Below, piece after piece: positions 3,047 through 61,903 of a stretch of DNA of 64,000 bases. The notes beneath the pieces were generated by a model. It ran no database searches, was not told the DNA's origin, and saw only the letters and a list, made by a program, of their open reading frames with translations. Source of the DNA: Acidobacteriota bacterium (GTDB lineage: Bacteria > Acidobacteriota > Terriglobia > Terriglobales > SCQP01); NCBI GenBank assembly GCA_004299485.1, contig SCQP01000016.1:213842-277841 (forward strand), given 5' to 3'. A program made the translations under genes and the position numbers. Numbering within the stretch: position 1 is the first letter of the stretch; each line of letters opens with the position of its first letter.

Positions 3047-3081
3047 AACTGTAAACTGTAAGCTGTAAACTGTAAACTCAC
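3047..3081. repeat. Tandem heptamer array (AACTGTA x about 5; reverse complement CAGTTTA)
   Basis: aactgta aactgta agctgta aactgta aactcac. The array ends 4 nt before the argD ATG. Confidence 0.9.
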
Positions 3082-3085
3082 TCCC

Positions 3086-4306
3086 ATGGACACTGCGCCT
3101 TCCACCACCACGGCCCTGAAGCGCATTCAGGATCTTGAAGCCCAATATCTGTTTTCCACCTACACCCGCGTGCCGCTGCTGCTGGAGCGCGGCAAGGGCG
3201 TGTTCGTGTACGACAGCACCGGCAAGAAGTATCTCGACTTCATTACCGGCATCGGCGTGAACGCCCTGGGCTACGCGCATCCGCGCCTGCTGGCGGTGAT
3301 CAAGGAACAGAGCAAGCTGCTGATTCACAGCTCGAACATGTATTACAACGCCTACCAGGGGCCGCTGGCGGAGAAGCTGACCAAAGCCAGCCGCATGGAG
3401 CGGGCGTTTTTCACCGTAAGCGGCGCCGAAGCCGCTGAATGCGCGCTCAAGGTGGCGCGCGCGGTGGCGCAGAAAATTTCGCCGGACAAGTATGAGCTGG
3501 TCGCCGTCGATCACTCTTTCCACGGCCGCACCATGGGCGCGCTTTCCGTGACTGGCCAGACCGAATATCGCACCCCCTTCGGGCCGCTGCTCCCGAAAGT
3601 GCACTTCGTGCCTGCCAACGATGTGGCCGCGCTCACGGCGGCCGTAAACGCCAATACCTGCGCCATCATTCTTGAACCGGTGCAGGGCGAAGGCGGCATC
3701 CACGTGCTGGAGACCTCCTTCCTGCGCGCCGCGGCCGATCTGGCGCGACAGCATCAGGCCAGCCTGATCTTTGATGAGATCCAGTGCGGCATGGGCCGCA
3801 CCGGCAAGCTCTTCGCGCACCAGTGGACCGATCTCGTTCCGGATATCCTGATCACCGCCAAGCCCATTGCCAGCGGCTATCCGCTGGGCGCCTGCATGGC
3901 GCGCGGCGCGGCGGCGACGGCGCTGACTTCCCACAGCCACGGAACGACATTCGGCGGTGGGCCGCTTGCATGCCGCCTGGGCATCGAGGTGCTCGATATT
4001 CTCGATCGCGAAGAGATGTACGCCCACATCCGCGCCATGGGTGAGCGTCTGAAGCAGGGCCTGGAAGTTCTGGCGAAGAAGCACAAATTTGTGAAGGAAG
4101 TGCGCGGCAAAGGCCTGATGCTGGGCATGGAGTTCGACCGTCCCGCCAAGCCGGTGTTTGACAGCATGGTCGAGCAGGGCCTGCTCGCCAACGTCACCCA
4201 CACCTACACCATCCGCATGCTGCCGCCCTACATTCTCGAAGAGCAGCACGTCGACAAAGCCCTGCGCATCGTCGGCAAGGCGCTTCGCGCAGCGAAAAAG
4301 GCATAG
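3086..4306 (+). CDS. argD: Acetylornithine aminotransferase (class III aminotransferase)
   Basis: 406 aa. 'LIFDEIQCGMGRTGKLFA' and 'SHGTTFGG' are class III PLP aminotransferase motifs, and the N-terminus resembles ArgD. Confidence 0.85.
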   Translation: MDTAPSTTTALKRIQDLEAQYLFSTYTRVPLLLERGKGVFVYDSTGKKYLDFITGIGVNALGYAHPRLLAVIKEQSKLLIHSSNMYYNAYQGPLAEKLTKASRMERAFFTVSGAEAAECALKVARAVAQKISPDKYELVAVDHSFHGRTMGALSVTGQTEYRTPFGPLLPKVHFVPANDVAALTAAVNANTCAIILEPVQGEGGIHVLETSFLRAAADLARQHQASLIFDEIQCGMGRTGKLFAHQWTDLVPDILITAKPIASGYPLGACMARGAAATALTSHSHGTTFGGGPLACRLGIEVLDILDREEMYAHIRAMGERLKQGLEVLAKKHKFVKEVRGKGLMLGMEFDRPAKPVFDSMVEQGLLANVTHTYTIRMLPPYILEEQHVDKALRIVGKALRAAKKA

Positions 4307-8953: not shown

Positions 8954-8954
8954 G

Positions 8955-9065
8955 GTGGCTCGCCACTTTTTGCCCCGGTCGCTCCCGTTGGTCGCTCGGA
9001 GTGCGGGCTTCGATTCCCGGCAGAGTCCGCCCGCTGGCGCTCGGGGCTCCTCCAAGCTGCCGCCA
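8955..9065 (+). repeat. 111-bp interspersed repeat, copy 1
   Basis: Begins gtggctcgccactttttg and ends ctccaagctgccgcca. It starts 1 nt after the stop of the ABC ATPase gene. Near-identical copies lie at 29961-30071 and 34374-34484. Confidence 0.95.
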
Positions 9066-9521
9066 CATGTGCGCTTTTGGTCTCGTCCGCTGTTCCCTTT
9101 TTTTACGCTAACTGTACCACTTTGCAACGCAAAGCAGCGTATTTGCTGGGGATCTTGAATGTCTGGAGTGGCACACGCGGAACAGGAAATGGAACAGGCG
9201 CGTACGGGGCGCCGTGGCGGGTGGCGAGTCGCGAGTGGTGAGACAAGGCTGACGGACATGGTTCGAGTGTTGGATCGGCGGTGCGCACCCACGGTATCCC
9301 TGCTTCGCGCTCGCGCTACGCAGGGCAGGGCCGGCGGAGCTGCCCGGTCAAGCTAAGGACGGTTATGAGTAATTAGATGGGCAAAGGGATCATTTGGTTG
9401 GCCGGAAGGGAGAATGCGTGAGCCCTGAAATGGGACGGCGTGACCCCACATGAACGGGGATTGACTGCATCACGGCGTGAGTTGAGGCTGGTAGCTATTC
9501 GGCTCATTTCCGGACGCTGCC

Positions 9522-27377: not shown

Positions 27378-27410
27378 CAGTTATCAGTTGTCAGTCATCA
27401 GTTTTCAGTA
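27378..27410. repeat. Tandem heptamer array (CAGTTNT x about 5), left arm of an inverted pair
   Basis: cagttat cagttgt cagtcat cagtttt cag. Confidence 0.9.
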
Positions 27411-27453: not shown

Positions 27454-27488
27454 ACTGAGAACTGAAAACTGAGAACTGAAAACTTCAG
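27454..27488. repeat. Tandem heptamer array (ACTGARA x 5), right arm of an inverted pair
   Basis: actgaga actgaaa actgaga actgaaa acttcag. This is the reverse complement of the CAGTTNT family. It overlaps the DUF420 stop codon. Confidence 0.9.
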
Positions 27489-27898
27489 CGGTAGAGCATC
27501 CAGTAGACGGCGACGCCGGTCACCGAGACATACATCCAGATGGGCCAGGTCCAGCGCGCCCACTGACGGTGGCGGCGAAATCGGCCGCGCAGCGCCAGCA
27601 CCAGGGTGATAATCGCCAGAACCGGCACCGCGGAGGCGAGCAGCGAGTGCGTGCTGAGGATGGCGAAATAGGTAAGCCGGAGCCAGCCGACGCCGGTGTA
27701 GTAAACGATGCCGTTGTGAAAATGATCGGCGAGATAAACCGCCAGGAATACGGCCGAGGTGGCAAAGGCGGAAAGCATGAAGGCACGGTGCGCGCGCACG
27801 CGCTTGCGCTTGATGCAAACCAGGCCGCAGACCAGCAGCGCCGCGCTCACCAGGTTGAGGGTGGCGATCCAGACAGGCAATGAACTCCAGCCAAACAT
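27485..27898 (-). CDS. DUF420-family membrane protein (cytochrome-oxidase-associated)
   Basis: 137 aa with 4 TM segments. The pattern 'LNLVSAALLVCGLVCIKRKRVRAHRAFMLSAF' and the position next to ctaB fit DUF420. Confidence 0.6.
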   Translation of the reverse strand: MFGWSSLPVWIATLNLVSAALLVCGLVCIKRKRVRAHRAFMLSAFATSAVFLAVYLADHFHNGIVYYTGVGWLRLTYFAILSTHSLLASAVPVLAIITLVLALRGRFRRHRQWARWTWPIWMYVSVTGVAVYWMLYR

Positions 27899-29934: not shown

Positions 29935-29952
29935 ATCGGTAGCGATTGGCGA

Positions 29953-30885
29953 TTAGCTATGTGGCTCGCCACTTTTTGCTTTGGTCGCTCCCGTTGGTCG
30001 CTTGGAGTGCGGGCTTCGATTCCCGGCAGGATCCGCCCGCTGGCGCTCGGGGCTCCTCCAAGCTGCCGCCAAGGGCGGCGCGCCCGCCTTACCTCGCGCC
30101 CTTGGTTGGCGTGGGGTTGCTTTTTGCAGGCCGAACATTTCGGCTTCGGTCAGGGGACGCATCTTTCCTGATTGTAGCTGGCCAATGGTCAATTTGCCGA
30201 TGGCCACGCGTTTCAGCTTTTCCACCGGGTGACCGACGAGCTGGAACATTTTGCGGATTTGATGATAGCGGCCTTCGACCAGCACCACCTCGAGCCAGGG
30301 ATTTTCGCGCGAGGTGCGGTAAACGCCTGCCTGCTGGCGGGCGCGGCCGCTGGCGCCGGCGTCGCGCAGCCAGCGGATTTGCGCCGGCGCGGTGCGCCGG
30401 CCATCGATCGTGACGCCGCGCCGGAGCCGTTCGAGATGTTCTTCGCTGGGCCGGCCGCTGACTTTCACCCAGTAGGTCTTGGGCAGCGCCGTGCTGGCTT
30501 TCAGTACATGGTTGGCGAGCTCGCCGTCGTTGGTAAGCAGGATCAGGCCCTCGGAGTGAAAATCCAGCCGCCCGACGGGATAGAGACGCTCCTTGATGCC
30601 CCGCAGCAGGCGAGTGTAATCGCTGATGCTGGGGCGGCCCTCTGGATCCCTGAGGGTGCTGACCACACCTTTGGGCTTGTAAAACAGCAGGTAGCGCAGG
30701 TTCCGTTCGCGCTGGAGCGGCTTGCCGGCTACGGCAATCCGGTCCGTGTCCCAGTCGGCTTTGCTGCCCAGCTCGGTCACAATGCGGCCGTTGACGCTCA
30801 CCTGGCCGGTGGTGATCAGTGTTTCCGCTTGCCGGCGGGAGGCATACCCCGCCTGGGCGATGAGCTTTTGCAGCCGGCTTTTCAT
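29953..30885 (-). CDS. rluB: 23S rRNA pseudouridine synthase (RluB/RsuA family) with repeat-derived C-terminal tail
   Basis: S4 domain 'MKSRLQKLIAQAGYASRRQAETLI' and catalytic 'GRLDFHSEGLILLTNDG'. ATG at 30885 chosen; the track ORF begins at 31155. The last ~39 aa are 'LAAAWRSPERQRADPAGNRSPHSKRPTGATKAKSGEPHS'. Confidence 0.85.
   Translation of the reverse strand: MKSRLQKLIAQAGYASRRQAETLITTGQVSVNGRIVTELGSKADWDTDRIAVAGKPLQRERNLRYLLFYKPKGVVSTLRDPEGRPSISDYTRLLRGIKERLYPVGRLDFHSEGLILLTNDGELANHVLKASTALPKTYWVKVSGRPSEEHLERLRRGVTIDGRRTAPAQIRWLRDAGASGRARQQAGVYRTSRENPWLEVVLVEGRYHQIRKMFQLVGHPVEKLKRVAIGKLTIGQLQSGKMRPLTEAEMFGLQKATPRQPRARGKAGAPPLAAAWRSPERQRADPAGNRSPHSKRPTGATKAKSGEPHS
29961..30071 (+). repeat. 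111-bp interspersed repeat, copy 2
   Basis: Same element as 8955-9065. Read on the minus strand, it supplies the last ~37 codons of the rluB ORF. Confidence 0.95.
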
Positions 30886-34869: not shown

Positions 34870-35073
34870 GTGAAAGAGCAGGGAACTGTCAAGTGGTTCA
34901 ACAATGCCAAGGGCTATGGCTTCATCACCCGCATGAGCGGTGAGGATGTCTTTGTGCATTACACAGCGATTCAGGGCGAAGGGTATCGTTCCCTGGCCGA
35001 GGGCCAGGCGGTGGAGTTCGAGGTCAAGCAGGGCCCCAAGGGTCTGCTGGCCGAAGATGTGACGGTACTGTAG
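34870..35073 (+). CDS. cspA: Cold-shock protein (CspA family)
   Basis: '[15 protein letters not shown]' and 'VFVHYTAI' RNP motifs. 67 aa, GTG start, with a ~190-nt upstream non-coding leader. Confidence 0.9.
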
Positions 35074-38984: not shown

Positions 38985-39576
38985 GCAGCGCCTCCGGATT
39001 GAGCACAGGCAACGGCCGCAGTTCGATCAGGCGCTCGGGCTTGCCCCAGCGGCGCAGGGTTTCCCTCGTCGTAGGCACGGGCTCGCCGTTCAGCACCAGC
39101 GCATGCAGCGCGAGGCCGCGGCGGCGGAGCGCTTCGAGGCTCAGCAGGGTGTGATTGATGGTGCCGAGAGCGGTGCGCGCCACCAGCACGACGGGCAGCG
39201 CCAGCCAGACCATTAGATCCAGCATGGTGGCGTCGTCGTTGATCGGGACCATTAACCCTCCCGCGCCTTCGACGATGATGGGTGCGGGCGCTGGCGGCAG
39301 GCCGAGCCGCTCGCGGCGGATGGCGACGCCTTCGGCGGCAGCGGAAACATGCGGCGAGGCGGGCAGCTTGAGGCGATAGGCTTCGGGCAGAATGCGCGCG
39401 GGCGGAAGGCCGGTCCAGCGGGCGACGGCCTCGGTGTCGGTCGCCGGATCGCCCGCGACGCCACTTTGGATGGGCTTCCAGTAGTAGGCGCCGGGCGTGG
39501 CCAGCGTCAGCGCTGCCGCTACCACGGTTTTACCGACGCCCGTATCCGTGCCGGTGACGAACCAACCGTTAGGCAT
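38971..39576 (-). CDS. bioD: Dethiobiotin synthase
   Basis: P-loop 'GTDTGVGKT' and '[10 protein letters not shown]'. Confidence 0.85.
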
Positions 39577-41713
39577 GCGCCGCCAGCACGCGCACCAGGC
39601 GGCTGCACGCGGCCGGGCTTTGGCCGGCGTGGGCGGTGATGCGCAGCCGCGCCGTGCCCTCGGGCACGGTGGGCGGCCGAATGGCGCGGACGTCCAGGCC
39701 TTCGGCGGCGAGGGCAGCTTCGAGCTTCAGCGCCGCCGCGTCGCTGCCGGCAATCACGGGGATGATGGGCGAAGCGGGAGCGCCGAGCGTCGCCAGGCCG
39801 GCGTCGGCCAGCTCGGTGCGGATTTGGCACGCGCGCGCGAGCACCTGCTCGCGCCGCTGGGGCTCGCGCCGCACCGCATTCAGCGCGGCGGTGAGTTGCA
39901 CCGCCAGCAGCGGCGCCGGCGCGGTCGAGTAAATGAAGCTGCGGCTCTGATTCACGAGGTGCTCGATGAGGCGCCGCGAGCCGGTCACCAGCGCGCCGCT
40001 GGCGCCCATAGCTTTGCCGCAGGGATGCAACACGGCCGCGGCGGCGTTGGCAACCGCCTCGCCCGCGGCGGCGACGCGGCCGGCGCCTTCAGGGCCATAC
40101 AAGCCCAGGGCGTGGGCTTCATCCACGATCAGGCCGGCGTGGTGCTGGCGGCACAATTCCGCGATGGCTTCGAGCGGCGCGAAGTCGCCATCCATGCTGT
40201 AGACCGACTCGATCACCACCCAGCGGCGCTGCTTGCCGACGGCGGGATAGCGGCGCAACCGTTCGGCCAGCGCATCGGCGCTGACGTGGGGCACGAGCAC
40301 CCGCCGCGCGCCTGCGGCGCGGATGCCTTCAATCAGGCTGGCGTGGTTGCGCTCATCGGAAAATACAATGTCGCCACGGCCGACCAGCGCGGTGATCACA
40401 CCCAGTCCGGCGGTGTAACCGGAGCTATACAGCAGCGCCGCCTCGCGGTTTTGCCAGGCGGCGAACTCGGCTTCGAGCTCGACGATGGCGGCGTGGTTGC
40501 CGCGCACGAGGCGCGAACTGGTGGAACCCAGTTCCAGGCCCTGATCCAGGGCCTCGACCATCGCCGCCCGAATGCCCGGATGCTGGCTCAGGCCGAGATA
40601 GTCGTTGGAGCAAAAATCCTCGCCCTCGGCGGCCCGCAGCCGGCGGCGGCGCTGGCGTTGTTCGCGCTCGGCGAGTTCTTCATCCCAGGCCCGCTCCAGT
40701 TCCGCGAGGCCGGAGGAGAGGGAAGAGGGAAGAGGGAAAAGGGAAGTCGCAACGGGCGCCGGTTCCGGGTCCAGCCCGAGCTTCGCCAGCAGCGCGTGAT
40801 CGTGATCCTCGCCGGGATTCGGCGTGGTGAGCAGCTTCTCGCCTACGAAGATCGAATTGGCGCCAGCGTAGAAGCAGAGCGCTTGCGCTTCGTCGCTGAG
40901 CGCCAGCCGGCCGGCGCTGAGGCGCACGCGCGAATCGGGCATCAGCATGCGCGCGGTGGCGATGGCGCGCACCAGCTCGAAGCAATCGACCGGCATGTTT
41001 TCCGCCAGCGGCGTGCCTTCGACCGCGACCAGCGCGTTAATCGGCACGCTCTCGGGCGGCGGATTCATATTCGCCAGCGTGAACAGCAGCCGCACGCGGT
41101 CGGCGTCGGCTTCGCCCAGACCCAGAATGCCGCCGCAGCAAACCGAAATGCCGGCGCCGCGGACGTGTTCGAGCGTGCGCAGGCGATCTTCATAGGTGCG
41201 CGTAGTGATGATGTGGCCGTAGAACTCGGGTGAGGTGTCGAGGTTGTGGTTGTAGGCGGTGAGGCCGGCGTCGGCGAGCTGCTGCGCCTGCTCGGCGTTG
41301 AGCATGCCGAGGGTACAGCAGACTTCCATGCCTAAGCCGGCCACGCCGCGCACCATCTCCAGTACGCGATCAAAGTCGGCGCCCTCTTTGACCTGCCGCC
41401 AGGCCGCGCCCATGCAGAAGCGGCTGGAACCGCCCGCGCGCGCCTGCTCGGCCGATTGCATCACGGTTTCCAGGTCGAGCAGTTTGCCGGCTTCGACGCC
41501 GGTGTGATAGCGGGCGCTCTGCGGGCAATAGGAACAATCCTCCGGACAGCCGCCCGTCTTGATGGACAGCAGATGACACATCTGGACGGAGTGGTGGCGC
41601 TGGTGCTGGCGGTGGACTTCGTGGGCTTGCTCAATCAGCTCCAGGAGGGGTTGATTGTAGATATTGGATACATCTTCTACGGTCCATTTCGGAGCAGTGG
41701 TCGCAGTAGCCAT
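39569..41713 (-). CDS. Fused biotin synthase / 8-amino-7-oxononanoate synthase (BioB-BioF)
   Basis: The N-terminal half carries radical-SAM '[11 protein letters not shown]' and '[11 protein letters not shown]'. The C-terminal half carries '[14 protein letters not shown]' and a BioF-like PLP region. It is a single uninterrupted 714-aa ORF; the junction '[13 protein letters not shown]' is encoded by a heptamer array. Confidence 0.8.
40712..40746. repeat. Tandem heptamer array (AGGGAAG x 5) inside the bioB-bioF junction
   Basis: ggaggag agggaag agggaag agggaaa agggaag on the + strand, which is the template strand of the gene. Confidence 0.85.
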
Positions 41714-53854: not shown

Positions 53855-54901
53855 ATGCAATATGACGCGGTGGTACTGGTTTCCTTCGGCGGGCCGGAGA
53901 AGCTCGAAGACGTGCTGCCGTTCCTGGAAAACGTTCTGCGCGGCCGGAATGTGCCCGCGCAGCGGCGGCAGGAAATTGCCGAGCACTATTGCGCCATGGG
54001 CGGCCGCAGCCCGATCGTGGAAGCCACGCGCGCCATGGCGGCGCATCTGCAAAACGAGCTGGACCTGAAAGGTCCGCGCCTGCCGGTTTACATCGGTAAC
54101 CGCAACTGGCATCCGATGCTGGAAGCCACGCTGCGCAAGATGGCGCAGGACGGAATCGGGCGCGCGCTGGCGGTGGTGACTTCGGCGTTCGGCTCTTATT
54201 CCGGCTGCCAGCAGTACCGCGAGGATATCGAGCGCGCACGGGGCATAGTCGCGGCGGCACTGGGCAAGGCCGCACCGCAGATCGACAAAATCCGGCTGTT
54301 CTACAATCACCCCGAATACCTGGCGATCTGGATCGAACGCGTGCAGGACGCGCTGGAGCAGCTCCCCTCAGGCAGTGAAATCATCTTCACGGCGCATAGC
54401 ATTCCGGAAACCATGGCGGCGGTCGCGCCCTATAGGGAGCAGTTGCAGGAAGCGGCGCGGCTGATTGCCACCGCCAATGGCCAGGCGCGCTACCATCTCG
54501 CCTTTCAGAGCCGCAGCGGCCGGCCGGAAGATCCCTGGCTGGAACCCACGGTGGAATCCGTGTTGATCGCTTGCGCCAAGCGCGCCGTGCCAGGCGTGGC
54601 CGTCGTGCCGCTGGGCTTTCTTTCCGACCACATGGAAGTGGTCTACGACTTGGACCGCGAGGTACGGCAAAAGGCGGATACGCTGGGCGTGCCGATGGTG
54701 CGCGTGAAGACGCCGGGAGACCATCCGGCGTTTGCCAGTCTGCTGCGGGAACTCATTCTCGAGCGGTGTGATCCCGAGCGCGTGCGCCGAGGGGTTGGGC
54801 GCTGCGGTGTTTGGCCCGATGGCTGCTATGAGGGCTGCTGTCTGACGAAGAAGCCGCCAGTTGTCAGCTATCAACCATCCGTGGTGACTAGCGGCCGGTA
54901 G
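53855..54901 (+). CDS. hemH: Ferrochelatase
   Basis: 'VVLVSFGGPE', 'GGRSPI', 'FTAHSIPE', 'GFLSDHMEV'. The C-terminal ~15 aa run into a heptamer array. Confidence 0.85.
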   Translation: MQYDAVVLVSFGGPEKLEDVLPFLENVLRGRNVPAQRRQEIAEHYCAMGGRSPIVEATRAMAAHLQNELDLKGPRLPVYIGNRNWHPMLEATLRKMAQDGIGRALAVVTSAFGSYSGCQQYREDIERARGIVAAALGKAAPQIDKIRLFYNHPEYLAIWIERVQDALEQLPSGSEIIFTAHSIPETMAAVAPYREQLQEAARLIATANGQARYHLAFQSRSGRPEDPWLEPTVESVLIACAKRAVPGVAVVPLGFLSDHMEVVYDLDREVRQKADTLGVPMVRVKTPGDHPAFASLLRELILERCDPERVRRGVGRCGVWPDGCYEGCCLTKKPPVVSYQPSVVTSGR

Positions 54902-54955
54902 TTTGCTGGGGGCGCCGAGGGGTTCGCTGACGGTTGGCCATCAGCTATCAGCCGC
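54858..54955. repeat. Two short direct CAG-N4 heptamer arrays flanking a ~56-bp GC-rich spacer
   Basis: cagttgt cagctat caaccat at 54858-54878, and tggccat cagctat cagccgc at 54935-54955. They lie between convergent hemH and gltP. Confidence 0.7.
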
Positions 54956-56198
54956 GAGTGGCGGCGGCTAGTTCGGTGGGGGCGGCGAGGGTTTCGCCTT
55001 CCCAGCGGGCCACTACTGCCGCGGCCAGGCAGTTGCCGATTACATTGACGGCGGTGCGGCCCATGTCCAGAAACTGATCGACGCCCAGCAGCAGCGCCAC
55101 GCCCGACAGTGGCAAGCCAAAGGTCGCAGCGGTGGCGGCCAGCACCACAATCGCCGCGCGCGATACGCCGGCGACGCCTTTGCTGGTCAGCATCAGCGTC
55201 AGCAGCATGAAGATTTGCTGGCCCAGGCTCATGTGCATGTGCGCCGCCTGGGCGATGAACATCGCCGCCAGGCTCAGGTACAGGGTCGTTCCCGTCAGGT
55301 TGAAGCTGTAGCCGGTCGGAATCACGAAGCCGACGATACGGCGGGAAACGCCCATGGCTTCCATGTTCTCGAGTGCGCTGGGCAGTGCCGCTTCTGAACT
55401 CGAAGTGGAAAAGCCAATCAGCGTCGGCTCCTTGATGGCGGCCCAGAAGCGGGCCAAGGGTACCCGGAAAAGCACGATGGTCGCACCGAACACGACCACC
55501 AGGAACACCGCCAGCGCCCCGTAGAGCGTAGCTACCAGCTCGGCCAGTGGCACCAGCACCCCCAGCCCTTGCTTGCCGATACTGGCGGCGACGGCGCCCA
55601 ACACGCCGAAGGGCGCCGTCCACATCACGATTTCGGTGAGCTTGAACATGATCTTCATCAAGCCCTCGCAAAAGCGCAGCACCACGTGCGCGGGCTGGCC
55701 TTCTTCGGCGCCCGCCATCACCAGCGCAATGGCAAACAGCACGCTGAACACCACTACCTGCAGGACTTCGCCGTTGGCCAGCGCCTGGGCGAAGCTTTGC
55801 GGGAAGGTATGCAGAATCAGGCTGTCCAGCAGGCCGGGATGCACGCCCCCGCCCCCCAGTACGGTTCCGCTCGCGGCCGCGCCGCCGAGCGTGGCGCCGG
55901 CGCCGGGCTTGAGCCAGTTCACCGCCAGCAATCCCAGCACCAGCGCGCAGGTGGTGACCACCTCAAAAAAAACAATGGCTTTGACGGCGATGCGGCCCAG
56001 GCCCTTGAGTTCGCCATGTCCGGCGATGCCGACTACCAGCGTGGCGAAGATCAGCGGGCCCACGATCATCTTGATCAGCCGGAGAAAAATCACCTCCAGC
56101 GGGCTCAACGCCATACCGAAGTGCGGCCACAAAGCGCCGATCCCCACCCCCCCGACCAGCGCGATGAAAATCCAATGCGTAAGCGTCAGACGGCGCAT
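54948..56198 (-). CDS. Dicarboxylate/amino acid:cation symporter (GltP/DctA family)
   Basis: 416 aa. 'IKMIVGPLIF', 'STSSSEAALP', 'GYSFNLTGTTLY', 'DMGRTAVNVIGN'. Confidence 0.9.
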   Translation of the reverse strand: MRRLTLTHWIFIALVGGVGIGALWPHFGMALSPLEVIFLRLIKMIVGPLIFATLVVGIAGHGELKGLGRIAVKAIVFFEVVTTCALVLGLLAVNWLKPGAGATLGGAAASGTVLGGGGVHPGLLDSLILHTFPQSFAQALANGEVLQVVVFSVLFAIALVMAGAEEGQPAHVVLRFCEGLMKIMFKLTEIVMWTAPFGVLGAVAASIGKQGLGVLVPLAELVATLYGALAVFLVVVFGATIVLFRVPLARFWAAIKEPTLIGFSTSSSEAALPSALENMEAMGVSRRIVGFVIPTGYSFNLTGTTLYLSLAAMFIAQAAHMHMSLGQQIFMLLTLMLTSKGVAGVSRAAIVVLAATAATFGLPLSGVALLLGVDQFLDMGRTAVNVIGNCLAAAVVARWEGETLAAPTELAAATRG

Positions 56199-56219
56199 GG
56201 GCCTAGGGTACAGGGAACC

Positions 56220-56277
56220 GGGGCCAGGGGCCAGGGGTCAGGGGCCAGGAGTCAGGGGCCAGGGCCAGTGCTATGCT
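56220..56277. repeat. Tandem heptamer array (YCAGGGG x about 7); G-quadruplex-type motif on the + strand
   Basis: ccagggg ccagggg tcagggg ccaggag tcagggg ccagggc in the divergent gltP/thrC intergenic region. Confidence 0.9.
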
Positions 56278-57505: not shown

Positions 57506-57826
57506 CTACCAGCGCTGTTCGCGCCGGCCGCCGCCGCCAAAGCCGCCGCGTCCACCGCGGGCGCCGTTGCCGGCGCGTTCCGGACGGGGACGGGCAACGT
57601 TCACATTCAGAGCCCGGCCGTCGATTTCACTGCCGTTCAGCGCCGCGATGGCGGCGTCGCCCTGCTGATCGTCTTCCATTTCCACGAAACCGAAACCACG
57701 GGAACGGCCGGTGTCGCGGTCGGTCATGATGCTGACCCGGCTAACAGCCCCGTGCGGTTCGAACGCGGTACGCAAATCTGCTTCTGTCGTGTGAAACGAC
57801 AGATTTCCAACAAAAATATTCTTCAA
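57506..57826 (-). CDS. RRM-type RNA-binding protein with Gly/Arg-rich tail
   Basis: RNP2 'IFVGNL', RNP1 'RGFGFVEM', C-terminal 'GGRGGFGGGGRR'. Confidence 0.9.
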   Translation of the reverse strand: MKNIFVGNLSFHTTEADLRTAFEPHGAVSRVSIMTDRDTGRSRGFGFVEMEDDQQGDAAIAALNGSEIDGRALNVNVARPRPERAGNGARGGRGGFGGGGRREQRW

Positions 57827-57994: not shown

Positions 57995-58300
57995 TTACGC
58001 ACCGGCGCTATGGGCACGCAGCACGGTCAGGTTCAGGGCGTCGCGCAACTCGGGGCTGACGGCAAAGTGGACGGAGTTGCAGGGGGCAATCTCCAGCCGT
58101 GTGCCGGTGCGCGGATCGCGCCCGATGCGCGCCTTGCGGGCTACTGGCTTGAAGGTGCCAAAACCGGCCAGGGTGACACGCTGGCCGCGCGTCAGCTCCT
58201 CGGCCATCGCCGCCAGTGCCGCATTCAGTGCCCGCTCCGCGGTCATGCGCGGAATGCCGCTGGCACTCGCCATCGCCAAGCTCAGGTCACTACGGTTCAT
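57995..58300 (-). CDS. hup: HU/IHF-family DNA-binding protein
   Basis: 'LAGFGTFKPVARKARIGRDPRTG'. Confidence 0.85.
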   Translation of the reverse strand: MNRSDLSLAMASASGIPRMTAERALNAALAAMAEELTRGQRVTLAGFGTFKPVARKARIGRDPRTGTRLEIAPCNSVHFAVSPELRDALNLTVLRAHSAGA

Positions 58301-59986: not shown

Positions 59987-61285
59987 CTATTCCTGCGCCA
60001 GCGCCCGGTCCAGAATCGCATCCACGTTGCGGAGGTGATGTTTGAGGTCGAAGGCCGCCGCAATGGTCTCCGGCTTCACCTGCGCCCGGATCTCCGGATC
60101 GGCTTCAATGGCGGTGCGGAAATCGGCCCCTGTCCGCCAACTCTCCATCGCATGCCGCTGCACCCAGCGGTAGGCCTGCTCGCGGCTGATGCCGCTCTCG
60201 ACCAGCTCCAGCAAGAGCTGGCCGCTGAAGACCAGGCCGAACGAGGACTCCAGATTCTTTTGCATCCGTTCGGGATAGACCAGCAGCTTATCGATCAGGT
60301 TCGTGGTCTTGGCGAGCATGTAGTCGAGCAGAATGCAGGAATCCGGCAACACGACCCGCTCGACGGAACTGTGGCTGATATCGCGCTCATGCCAGAGCGC
60401 CACGTTTTCGAGCTCCGCCAGCGCGTTCGAGCGCAGCAGCCGCGCCAGACCGCAGATCTGCTCGCTGGTGACGGGATTGCGCTTGTGCGGCATGGCGGAA
60501 GACCCTTTTTGCTTTTCTGAAAAGAACTCCTCGGCCTCGCGCACTTCCGTGCGCTGCAGGTGCCGGACTTCGAGCGCAATTTTTTCGAGCGAGGCGCCGC
60601 ACACGGCGATGGCGCACAGAAAGGCGGCATGCTCTTCCCGTTGGATCACCTGATTGGCGATGGGCGCGGGTTTCAGCCCGAGCCGTTGACAGATGCGCGC
60701 CTCGACCTCCGGGTCCAAGTGGGCAAAGGTTCCGACCGCGCCACTCAACTTGCCCAGGCGCAGGTCTTCGGCCGCGGCGCGCAAACGGTGGATGTTGCGC
60801 ACATTTTCGCTATACCAAAGCGCGAGCTTGAGTCCGAAGGTGATCGGCTCGGCATGCACGCCATGGGTGCGGCCGACCTGGACGGTGTGGGCAAACTCCC
60901 GGGCCCGCCGCCGCAATACCGCGCCCAGAGCATCGAGGTCTTCGAGCAGCAGCCGGGCGGCCTGTTGCATCTGGAGCGCCTGGGCGGTGTCGATGGTGTC
61001 GTTGGAGGTCAGGCCGTAGTGAAAATAGCGCGCGGCCGGGCCCACGTGCTCGGCGACGTTGGTGGTGAAGGCGATCAAGTCGTGCTTGACCTCGGCCTCA
61101 ATCTCCGCGATGCGCTCCGGTTCGCAGGCGGCCTTGGCCTCGATTTCCCGTGCCGCCTCGGCGGGAATGATGCCCATTTCCGCCTCGACGGCAGCGGTGG
61201 CCTTTTCCACCGCCAGCCACTGCGCAAAGCGGTTTTCGTCGCTCCAGATGCGGCCCATCGCCGCGCGTGTATACCTTGCGATCAT
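59987..61285 (-). CDS. purB: Adenylosuccinate lyase
   Basis: 'MIARYTRAAMGRIWSDENRF', 'GLTSNDTIDT', signature 'SSAMPHKRNP'. ATG at 61285 chosen; the track ORF extends to 61957. Confidence 0.9.
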   Translation of the reverse strand: MIARYTRAAMGRIWSDENRFAQWLAVEKATAAVEAEMGIIPAEAAREIEAKAACEPERIAEIEAEVKHDLIAFTTNVAEHVGPAARYFHYGLTSNDTIDTAQALQMQQAARLLLEDLDALGAVLRRRAREFAHTVQVGRTHGVHAEPITFGLKLALWYSENVRNIHRLRAAAEDLRLGKLSGAVGTFAHLDPEVEARICQRLGLKPAPIANQVIQREEHAAFLCAIAVCGASLEKIALEVRHLQRTEVREAEEFFSEKQKGSSAMPHKRNPVTSEQICGLARLLRSNALAELENVALWHERDISHSSVERVVLPDSCILLDYMLAKTTNLIDKLLVYPERMQKNLESSFGLVFSGQLLLELVESGISREQAYRWVQRHAMESWRTGADFRTAIEADPEIRAQVKPETIAAAFDLKHHLRNVDAILDRALAQE

Positions 61286-61295
61286 GTTGTTTTGC

Positions 61296-61330
61296 CTGGC
61301 CCCTGTCCCCTGGCCCCTGTCCCCTGTTAG
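61296..61330. repeat. Tandem heptamer array (CTGKCCC x 5); G-quadruplex-type motif on the minus strand
   Basis: ctggccc ctgtccc ctggccc ctgtccc ctgttag in the divergent purB/pyrR intergenic region. It is the reverse complement of the CAGGGGN family at 56220-56277. Confidence 0.9.
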
Positions 61331-61342
61331 AATAACCTCGCT

Positions 61343-61903
61343 ATGGCTGACTCCATGCCTCTGTTGCGCGAGAAAGCGCAACTCATGTCTGCCTCCGAGA
61401 TTGAGCGCACCCTGGTGCGGCTGGCGCATGAAATTGTGGAAAAGAACAATGGCGTGGAGGGGCTGGCGCTGGTGGGCATCCGGCGCCGGGGCGAGCCGCT
61501 GGCGCGCCGCCTGGCCGCTCTTGCGGGCCGCATCGAGAACAAGCCGGTGCCGGTCGGCACGCTCGACATCACGCTGTACCGGGACGACCTGTCGCCGGTG
61601 GGCGTCAAGCCCGAAGTCAAACCCTCGCAGATCGACTTTGACATCAATGGCCTGAACGTGATTCTGGTGGATGACGTGCTCTACACCGGCCGCACCATCC
61701 GTGCCGCGCTCGACGCGCTGTTTGATCACGGCCGTCCGCGCCGGGTGCAGTTGTGCGCGCTGATCGACCGCGGCCACCGCGAGCTGCCCATTGAGGCCAG
61801 CTTCGTGGGCAAATACGTGCAAACCACGGCGCGCGAAATGGTGGAAGTGAAGCTGAAGGAGATGGACGGCACCGAACGGGTGCTCCTGGTCGAACCGGTC
61901 TAA
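61343..61903 (+). CDS. pyrR: Bifunctional pyr operon regulator / uracil phosphoribosyltransferase
   Basis: 'VILVDDVLYTGRTIRAAL' PRPP motif. The N-terminus 'LMSASEIERTLVRLAHEIVE' resembles PyrR. Lies upstream of pyrB-pyrC. Confidence 0.85.
   Translation: MADSMPLLREKAQLMSASEIERTLVRLAHEIVEKNNGVEGLALVGIRRRGEPLARRLAALAGRIENKPVPVGTLDITLYRDDLSPVGVKPEVKPSQIDFDINGLNVILVDDVLYTGRTIRAALDALFDHGRPRRVQLCALIDRGHRELPIEASFVGKYVQTTAREMVEVKLKEMDGTERVLLVEPV

Follow-up and report, generated by a model that had tools for sequence, protein, structure and literature searches.

Among the long simple sequence repeats (LSSRs) of many large, GC-rich genomes, heptanucleotide units are the most numerous, and their proposed origin is slippage of the polymerase (Mrázek 2007, as summarised in PMC4679880 and PMC4692102). 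We report that a 64,000-nucleotide stretch of an Acidobacteriota genome (Terriglobales; assembly GCA_004299485.1, contig SCQP01000016.1, positions 213,842 to 277,841; hereafter the window) carries a family of short tandem arrays with a period of seven nucleotides, and that these arrays belong to the known heptanucleotide LSSR class and are not a new type of element. We consider it likely that they are microsatellites born by slippage and turning over fast, which are kept where a change of 7n bases is harmless, and that they are neither conserved regulatory elements nor mobile ones. The original prediction, made from the letters of the window, had described a family of heptamer arrays at gene boundaries that was not known to have a functional description in this kind of genome; we likewise found no description of heptamer arrays in Acidobacteria in the searchable literature. 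The arrays, with the copy numbers given by Tandem Repeats Finder (TRF), are as follows.

3047-3081, plus strand: (AACTGTA) array (TRF 3047-3078, 4.6 copies, 92% matches), 4 nt before the argD ATG (3086).
27378-27410, plus strand: (CAGTTNT) array, left arm of an inverted pair (TRF 27378-27409, CAGTTAT, 4.6 copies).
27454-27488, plus strand: (ACTGARA) array of 4.4-5 copies, right arm of the inverted pair (TRF 27454-27484, ACTGAAA, 4.4 copies).
40712-40746, minus strand: (CTTCCCT) array of about 4.5 units in the BioB-BioF linker (TRF 40717-40746, AGAGGGA, 4.3 copies).
54858-54955, plus strand: two decayed half-arrays (CAGCYAT/CATCAGC), from repeat search and translations.
56220-56277, plus strand: (GGGGYCA) array of about 7 units (TRF 56220-56268, GGGGCCA, 7.1 copies) in the spacer between the divergent dctA-like gene and thrC.
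61296-61330, plus strand: (CCCCTGK) array of 4.7 units (TRF 61295-61327, CCTGTCC, 4.7 copies) in the spacer between the divergent purB and pyrR genes.
9214-9242, plus strand: weak (GTGGCGA) array of 4.1 units (TRF 81% matches, score 37), without CAG.
29942-29962, plus strand: pair of about two units, GCGATTG GCGATTA, below a TRF score of 30 and at chance level.

The LSSR class, defined for units of 5-11 nt (Mrázek, Guo and Shah 2007) and taken here as later papers summarise it, shares with these arrays the head-to-tail organisation beyond chance, the dominance of period 7, the bias towards intergenic DNA, unit numbers that vary between relatives and slippage as the proposed origin. Specifically, we found tandem arrays beyond chance, an excess at period 7, depletion in coding DNA save for multiples of three units (3n), and variation in unit number at the same site. 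The hosts given in those summaries are non-pathogens with large, high-GC genomes; the window has a GC content of 65%, and the best matches of its PurB, BioB-BioF, ThrC and ArgD proteins are found in metagenome-assembled genomes of Terriglobales (Acidobacteriota) at 86-97% identity, several of them from soil or peat samples, judging by their names. The differences are that Acidobacteria are not among the ten genomes summarised as richest in 5-11-nt repeats (Burkholderia, cyanobacteria, actinobacteria, Xanthomonas), and that the class as summarised comes without a CAG/CTGA anchor and without a link to leaderless-type promoters, both of which are seen here.

The STRR (short tandemly repeated repetitive) heptamers of heterocystous cyanobacteria have the unit sequences CCCCAGT, TTGGTCA and CAACAGT. 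The comparison with them that the original prediction drew is apt at the level of the class, since period 7, tandem organisation and a mostly non-coding location are shared, and CAGT/ACTG occurs in two of the three STRR units and in many units here. Membership, however, fails: there is no CCCCAGT, TTGGTCA or CAACAGT unit among the arrays, STRR1 has CTG on its G-rich strand where CAGGGGM here has CAG, the closest relatives of the host are Terriglobales and not cyanobacteria, and STRR arrays are far more numerous and often longer. Calothrix PCC 7601 is a strain for which STRR heptamers have been reported (PMC4692102).

In marine Beggiatoaceae, some cyanobacteria and some Bacteroidetes the heptamer TAACTGA is repeated upstream of start codons, in sets of 2-6 units placed in sense orientation a few nucleotides before the start, with no Shine-Dalgarno sequence and no functional theme among the downstream genes (PMC4679880). 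CAGTTAT, the consensus at 27378, is a reverse-complement rotation of TAACTGA (that array holds a single exact CAGTTAT unit; the remaining units are CAGTTGT, CAGTCAT and CAGTTTT), and AACTGTA and ACTGARA share its AACTG core. The argD array has the same placement, being in sense orientation just upstream of the start with no Shine-Dalgarno sequence between array and ATG, whereas the 27378/27454 pair lies at a 3' end. Other differences are that many units coexist here while one dominates there, that the host is an acidobacterium, and that arrays here are also present at 3' ends and in coding linkers.

Heptamers that form G-quadruplexes (G4) are GGGAATC in Xanthomonas and GGGGA(C/T)T in Nostoc (Rehm et al. 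2015, PMC4692102), and they share with the G-rich arrays of the window the non-coding G-tracts, length variation at the same site among close relatives and the neighbourhood of metabolic genes; in the window, however, the unit is CAGGGGY or CAGGGGM, there are two such arrays, both lie between divergent genes and the G4 is predicted only. In Haemophilus influenzae the (ATCTTTC)n repeat in the 5' untranslated region (5'-UTR) of hmw1A/hmw2A is likewise a 7-nt unit between promoter and start codon, and the repeats take part in a hairpin (PMC12721329, PMC8262952). That repeat is transcribed, has at least 11 units and sets a shown expression gradient of a surface adhesin in a host-adapted pathogen (PMC12721329, PMC8262952). 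The arrays here, in contrast, have 4-7 units and lie beside housekeeping genes. Finally, the omega repressor of pSM19035, a ribbon-helix-helix protein, binds operator/centromere arrays of the heptad (WATCACW)n. These heptads are also contiguous 7-bp units, direct or inverted, in promoter regions, but there one conserved unit on a plasmid serves one protein, whereas the units here are heterogeneous and the arrays are not conserved.

Period-7 arrays in the window and in Terriglobales

For the detection of tandem arrays in the window we used TRF together with our own scan, which had a threshold of at least 18/21 period matches. The null model consisted of 50 dinucleotide-preserving shuffles, and periods 4-15 were compared. 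The comparison set comprised 1.5 Mb surrounding purB from 80 Terriglobales species (loci L001-L080). Arrays were assigned to coding or intergenic DNA using simple open reading frame (ORF) calls that were curated by hand.

The predicted arrays are present at their positions, with qualifications for 29942 and 54858/54935 (see below). The scan returned five period-7 arrays in the 64-kb window and none in the 50 shuffles, and it returned no arrays at periods 4-6, 8-13 or 15; only period 14 (2x7) scores. Given this excess and a signal at period 7 only, the arrays are real and period-specific, and the shuffles rule out a chance origin. An excess over shuffled controls, which the original prediction implied, is hence present in the window, and a genuine family of arrays with differing units is confirmed. 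Period 7 is also the commonest tandem period in the Terriglobales loci, with 22 arrays; periods 14 and 15 follow with 12 and 11, and periods 4-6 and 8-13 have 0-7 each. Period 14 in these loci reflects alternating heptamer variants, and period 15 may be coding repeats of five amino acids. While the period is constant as predicted, the predicted constancy of length (about 35 bp) fails outside the window, where arrays of the relatives span 21-86 bp; among the metagenome matches listed, (AACTGTA)n arrays have 3-22 units.

Judged by the density in close relatives (143 kb), the window should contain 0.45 strict arrays (P=1e-4), and judged by that in distant relatives (1.46 Mb), 0.96 (P=3e-3); it contains five. 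Heptamer arrays are a trait of the clade that is amplified, in a lineage-specific burst, in this genome, which is richer in them than its relatives. Approximately 19 of the 27 arrays of at least three units (window plus relatives) are intergenic, compared with 18% intergenic DNA (p=4e-9). The predicted location at gene boundaries is thus borne out for most arrays, but those at 40712, in a protein linker, and at 54858, in the hemH tail, are coding. The neighbouring genes are housekeeping genes (argD, thrC, purB, pyrR, bioBF and hemH), and a scan of the window with Rfam at gathering thresholds and with ARAGORN returned no known RNA family or tRNA-linked repeat.

The array at 3047 is located between a 2-hydroxyacid dehydrogenase gene and argD (acetylornithine-type aminotransferase, 3086-4306) and consists of two AACTGTA units followed by AGCTGTA, AACTGTA and AACTCAC, after which come TCCC and the ATG. 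The array at 27454 begins at the stop codon (27485-27487) of a minus-strand gene (27485-27880). The repeats at 54858 and 54935, which had been counted as two arrays, are present, but they represent a single array in two decayed copies, contained in a 61-nt direct repeat (54867-54927 and 54937-54997; 70-bp spacing, 75% identity) where hemH and the dctA-like gene converge. The direct repeat duplicates the heptamer array plus the 3' end of the dctA-like gene, and the region codes for the C-terminal tail of hemH. The three-unit case suggested at 29942-29962 has about two units only and lies at chance level, exact two-unit period-7 runs being common (156 in 1.66 Mb). The weak array at 9214-9242, absent from the earlier list, lies inside an unusually long intergenic region of 568 bp (8954-9521) in which nothing is annotated and which has no Rfam match.

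Turnover and local birth of the arrays

Comparison with relatives shows how recently the arrays arose: where the flanking proteins are 92-97% identical and the flanks are the same, relatives have 0-2 units at sites at which the window has 5-7. Specifically, the dctA-thrC spacer measures 82 bp with about seven units in the window and 48 bp with the two units GAGGTCA GGGGCCA in L084 (ThrC 96% identical), and it is without an array in L085 (51 bp, ThrC 94%) and L087 (45 bp, 86%); its flanks GGGCNTAGGGTACAGGGAAC and CAGTGCTATGCTGCT are conserved between the window and the relatives. The purB-pyrR spacer is 57 bp in the window, where the (CCCCTGK)n array directly abuts the conserved CTGTTAGAAT; L087 has a spacer of 21 bp (ATCTGTTAGAATAACCTCGCT), and L001 an array-free one of 75 bp. 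Upstream of argD the spacer is 88 bp in the window and 30 bp (TTCCGCTTGTGTTAGCCTGAGATTATCCCC) in four contigs with 97% identical ArgD (92.7% at the nucleotide level), and in two more distant relatives (ArgD 86% and 84%) it is 28 and 24 bp and has no array. At the hemH/dctA-like end both L084 and L085 have a single (CATCAGC)x4 array and a single copy of the 61-nt repeat region. Unit numbers also vary among the relatives themselves, with n = 3, 5 and 3 for (CAGTTCT)n at one orthologous site in L019, L021 and L041. In the indel spectrum of the window against relatives only the array sites stand out (34, 36 and 70 bp), in alignments that are few and noisy.

The arrays are thus young, born in place from sequences that are already present at the site in relatives, and they are fast-evolving and not conserved elements. 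A reading of the arrays as conserved elements of gene boundaries does not stand, given that at the corresponding positions close relatives have either no array or one of 2-3 units; the comparison of unit numbers that the original prediction proposed gave the differences reported above. Moreover, the 80-bp flanks of the window arrays share only chance 11-14-mers, and with no common flanks the arrays are not copies of a mobile element.

The array at 40712 provides insight into what persists in coding DNA. BioB and BioF are fused in one ORF of 714 aa (39569-41713, minus strand) with NCBIfam domains for BioB at aa 9-314 and BioF at aa 353-710, and the array encodes the linker between them. Fusions of 700-750 aa are widespread in Terriglobales and sporadic elsewhere, and the fusion is ancestral in Terriglobales. 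A frameshift or assembly error between bioB and bioF was considered and rejected, because a separate bioF would have no start codon and fusions of this size are the norm in the order. In L081 (94% identical) the linker has about three units with the total length unchanged, in L082 (92%) there is a degenerate version of the array, and in L083 (84%) the linker is shorter by exactly 7 aa, i.e. 21 nt or three units. A difference of exactly three units is as expected if only frame-preserving expansions persist in coding DNA.

At other sites the arrays lie in or beside candidate promoters. In this clade TAnnnT hexamers peak 6-7 nt before start codons (13 cases in 130 genes compared with about 1-2 per other offset), a geometry that suggests frequent leaderless or near-leaderless transcription in these Terriglobales. 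Three putative elements, assigned from their pattern and their conservation in relatives, are relevant here.

56269-56277: putative extended -10 of thrC, TGCTATGCT.
56205-56210, minus strand: putative -10 of the dctA-like gene, TACCCT.
61325-61333: putative extended -10 of pyrR, TGTTAGAAT.

The array at 56220 lies exactly between the back-to-back -10 elements of the dctA-like gene and thrC. The array at 61296, whose unit is CAGGGGM when read in the sense of purB, is located upstream of the extended -10 of pyrR (ATG at 61343) and downstream of the presumed -10 of purB (ATG at 61285, minus strand), and it would give purB a G-rich leader of about 43 nt, the gene being otherwise probably leaderless or short-leader; in L087 purB has TATTCT followed by 7 nt and the ATG. 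Relatives have TGnTAGSCT in the array-free spacer upstream of argD. In the window this ancestral element is gone, and the last array unit supplies TAAACT (3073-3078), followed by 7 nt and the ATG, a spacing that fits other genes of the window, e.g. CTGTACCCT before the dctA-like gene. We infer that at argD the array has taken the place of the ancestral promoter and offers a -10-like hexamer, TAAACT, at the distance typical of leaderless genes.

Among relatives the distance from the -10 to the ATG of purB ranges from 7 to about 59 nt. Upstream of purB in L001 (9930-9975) there is a 12-nt direct repeat (AATAGAAAGGGT AATAGAAAGGAG) with a Shine-Dalgarno sequence, at the site of the window's array. 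TAnnnT hexamers, often preceded by TGn, are also present in the window upstream of the genes at 931, 1465, 18517, 48709, 50421, 52056 and 53855.

Slippage and its alternatives

If the arrays are heptanucleotide microsatellites, short local proto-repeats would act as seeds, to be expanded by strand slippage or by a comparable error of replication or repair with a preference for 7-nt units. Units would then be gained and lost rapidly, and arrays would survive, as nearly neutral sequence, only where a change of 7n bases is harmless, which in coding sequence would mean only multiples of three units (21 nt). Tolerated sites would include spacers upstream of an extended -10, 5' leaders, DNA after stop codons and dispensable C-terminal tails, and any effects on promoters, leaders or a protein linker would be side effects filtered by selection.

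Three sets of results weigh against this explanation. The first is the bias in unit sequence, which slippage alone does not predict. In agreement with the anchor noted in the original prediction, CAG/CTG is present in 19 of the 26 arrays that have three or more units (73%; window plus the 1.5 Mb from relatives) compared with 24% of intergenic 7-mers (p=2e-7). Exact two-unit intergenic runs have it in 46% of cases, so that the bias rises with array length. CTGA/TCAG is found in 16 of 27 arrays (59%) compared with 5% in the background; some of these arrays are orthologous, hence the counts are not fully independent and the effective sample is smaller. The ACTG/CTGA core is shared by STRR units of cyanobacteria and by the Beggiatoaceae repeats with TAACTGA. 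Moreover, AACTGTA recurs at non-orthologous places, preceding argD in the window and purB in L007, and the units CAGTTCT, CTGAAAT and ACGACTG are each found in several Terriglobales species. An explanation of CTG by primase or by the replication strand was set aside, as both orientations are present in the 64-kb window.

The second set concerns orientation. A metagenome search for exact (AACTGTA)3 returned at least 120 stretches, and 59 arrays with at least 350 nt on both sides were analysed. Among the matches listed the contigs have a GC content of 26-64%, hence many taxa are represented. In two of the stretches (L141:1568-1623 and L153:776-796) the (AACTGTA)n array runs directly into a telomere-type (AACCCTA)n repeat, so some metagenome matches are probably eukaryotic chromosome ends. 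Where an ORF of at least 100 codons starts with ATG within 40 nt of one of the 59 arrays among the matches listed, AACTGTA is in sense orientation in 15 cases and opposite in 2 (p=0.002), a bias that slippage alone does not predict either. No significant orientation bias was found at ORF ends beside the same arrays (18 versus 11), and nine of them are read through in the stop-free TACAGTT frame. We found no consistent strand relative to transcription across all arrays, the orientation being mixed except for arrays that abut start codons.

Thirdly, a 33-bp CAGTTCT/AACTGAG array is identical, variant unit included, in three species (L021:5737-5769, L041:4661-4693 and L047:7482-7514), while its flanks differ by about 15%; it is in sense orientation 23 nt upstream of a start codon and may reflect purifying selection on an array. 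These three results hint at selection on some arrays or at a sequence-specific step in their production, and because they fall outside slippage, they leave some probability for readings as tuning knobs, as sites of translation or protein binding, and, for two of the arrays, as G-quadruplexes.

It is conceivable, if doubtful, that the ACTG/CTGA heptads form one class across phyla that is shaped by molecular recognition and not by neutral slippage. Besides arrays of the window, such a class would hold two of the three STRR units and the TAACTGA repeats known from Beggiatoaceae, cyanobacteria and Bacteroidetes. Either the repeats would be produced by a sequence-specific step, or the A-rich strand would be selected because it gives genes without a Shine-Dalgarno sequence or a leader a self-contained module for their expression. 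Such a module would present a -10-like TAAACT at intervals of 7 bp and stop codons in each of the three frames, together with either an unstructured leader or a binding site for a protein whose footprint is 7 nt. The argD array would then be a promoter and leader of new birth, in place of the ancestral one.

Tuning knobs, i.e. phase-variable promoter or leader elements in which the number of 7-bp units would set the expression of the adjacent gene, appear unlikely. Four arrays do lie within 4-21 nt of start codons, inside or beside core promoters, and unit number varies among relatives. In H. influenzae a 5'-UTR heptamer sets the level of HMW1A inversely to repeat number via an RNA hairpin and RNase III (PMC12721329). 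A long hairpin is also predicted for the inverted pair 27378/27454, in the minus-strand transcript (-39 kcal/mol, z=-5.05, no shuffle as stable); it comprises five segments of 5-6 bp and starts at the stop codon, with no clear U-tract. However, the flanking genes are core biosynthetic genes and not surface or contingency genes, the linker of a protein, a C-terminal tail and 3' regions have arrays as well, and relatives do well without them.

We consider it quite improbable that the CAGGGGY array at 56220 and the CAGGGGM array at 61296 act as G-quadruplex regulators of thrC, the dctA-like gene, purB and pyrR. Both have at least four GGGG tracts with 3-nt loops, the sequence pattern of a G4, and a G4 is favoured in silico. 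With G4-aware folding the predicted energy of the purB leader falls from -7.0 to -31.2 kcal/mol, and that of the region upstream of thrC from -29.7 to -49.9 kcal/mol. At exactly four, the number of tracts in the purB array is the smallest that permits a G4, and a preference for four units was found by Rehm et al. (PMC4692102). On the other hand, the two arrays are situated between divergent genes, where the Xanthomonas and Nostoc repeats are under-represented, and Rehm et al. themselves found no regulatory role for those repeats (PMC4692102). Moreover, close relatives are without these arrays, and the proposal covers only two of about eight.

Very unlikely, to our mind, is binding of the ACTG/CTGA heptads by a translation factor, or one for single-stranded nucleic acids, whose footprint is about 7 nt (a cold-shock-domain protein, ribosomal protein S1 or an RRM protein), or their action as leaders for initiation independent of a Shine-Dalgarno sequence, as was proposed for the TAACTGA repeats in Beggiatoaceae (PMC4679880). 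The end of the argD array 4 nt before an ATG that lacks a Shine-Dalgarno sequence would fit such a role, as would the sense bias of (AACTGTA)n beside start codons (15:2 among the matches listed), the sense-oriented arrays 23-30 nt upstream of starts in L007, L028 and L021/L041/L047, the array perfectly conserved in three species and the similar placement of TAACTGA (MacGregor 2015, PMC4679880). A cold-shock-domain gene (34870-35073) and an RRM gene (57506-57826) in the window point weakly the same way, such genes being common. The units, however, differ widely (AACTGTA, CAGTTNT, CAGGGGY, CTTCCCT, GTGGCGA) and are found in both orientations relative to transcription, and the same genes in close relatives lack arrays. 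A filter of tolerance also explains the bias equally well, because only the AACTGTA strand has a -10-like TAAACT hexamer and stops in three frames. The genes near the arrays include those for an RRM_1-domain protein (57506-57826, minus strand), an HU-like protein (57995-58300, minus strand) and a cold-shock-domain protein (34870-35073, plus strand); their identities come from synteny with genes of L084, L085 and L082, and it is speculation only that they bind heptads.

A mobile element resembling MITEs (miniature inverted-repeat transposable elements) or repetitive extragenic palindromic (REP) sequences, or horizontal acquisition, is already largely refuted: TAACTGA/CAGTTAT and AACTGTA units are present in unrelated phyla (PMC4679880) and on metagenome contigs of 26-64% GC among the matches listed, but the window arrays share no flank beyond the chance matches described above, have no terminal inverted repeats or target duplications and grow from sequences present at the same site in relatives, a local origin that also argues against the horizontal transfer proposed for TAACTGA (PMC4679880).

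Significance for Terriglobales

If the arrays are ordinary heptanucleotide microsatellites, a little-studied class of repeat extends to the Acidobacteria, and the same spacer with 0, 2 or 7 units in close relatives provides unusually clean before-and-after examples. These show birth in place, and they suggest that an array can displace the promoter or leader of a core metabolic gene, or add exactly three units to a protein linker. Such arrays would be useful as strain markers, and they call for caution in the annotation of gene starts and promoters. There is a minority chance that the shared core and polarity reflect a real function across phyla. Together, the CTGA/ACTG core across phyla and the 15:2 bias among the matches listed make the question of why the period is seven, and why these units recur, a testable one.

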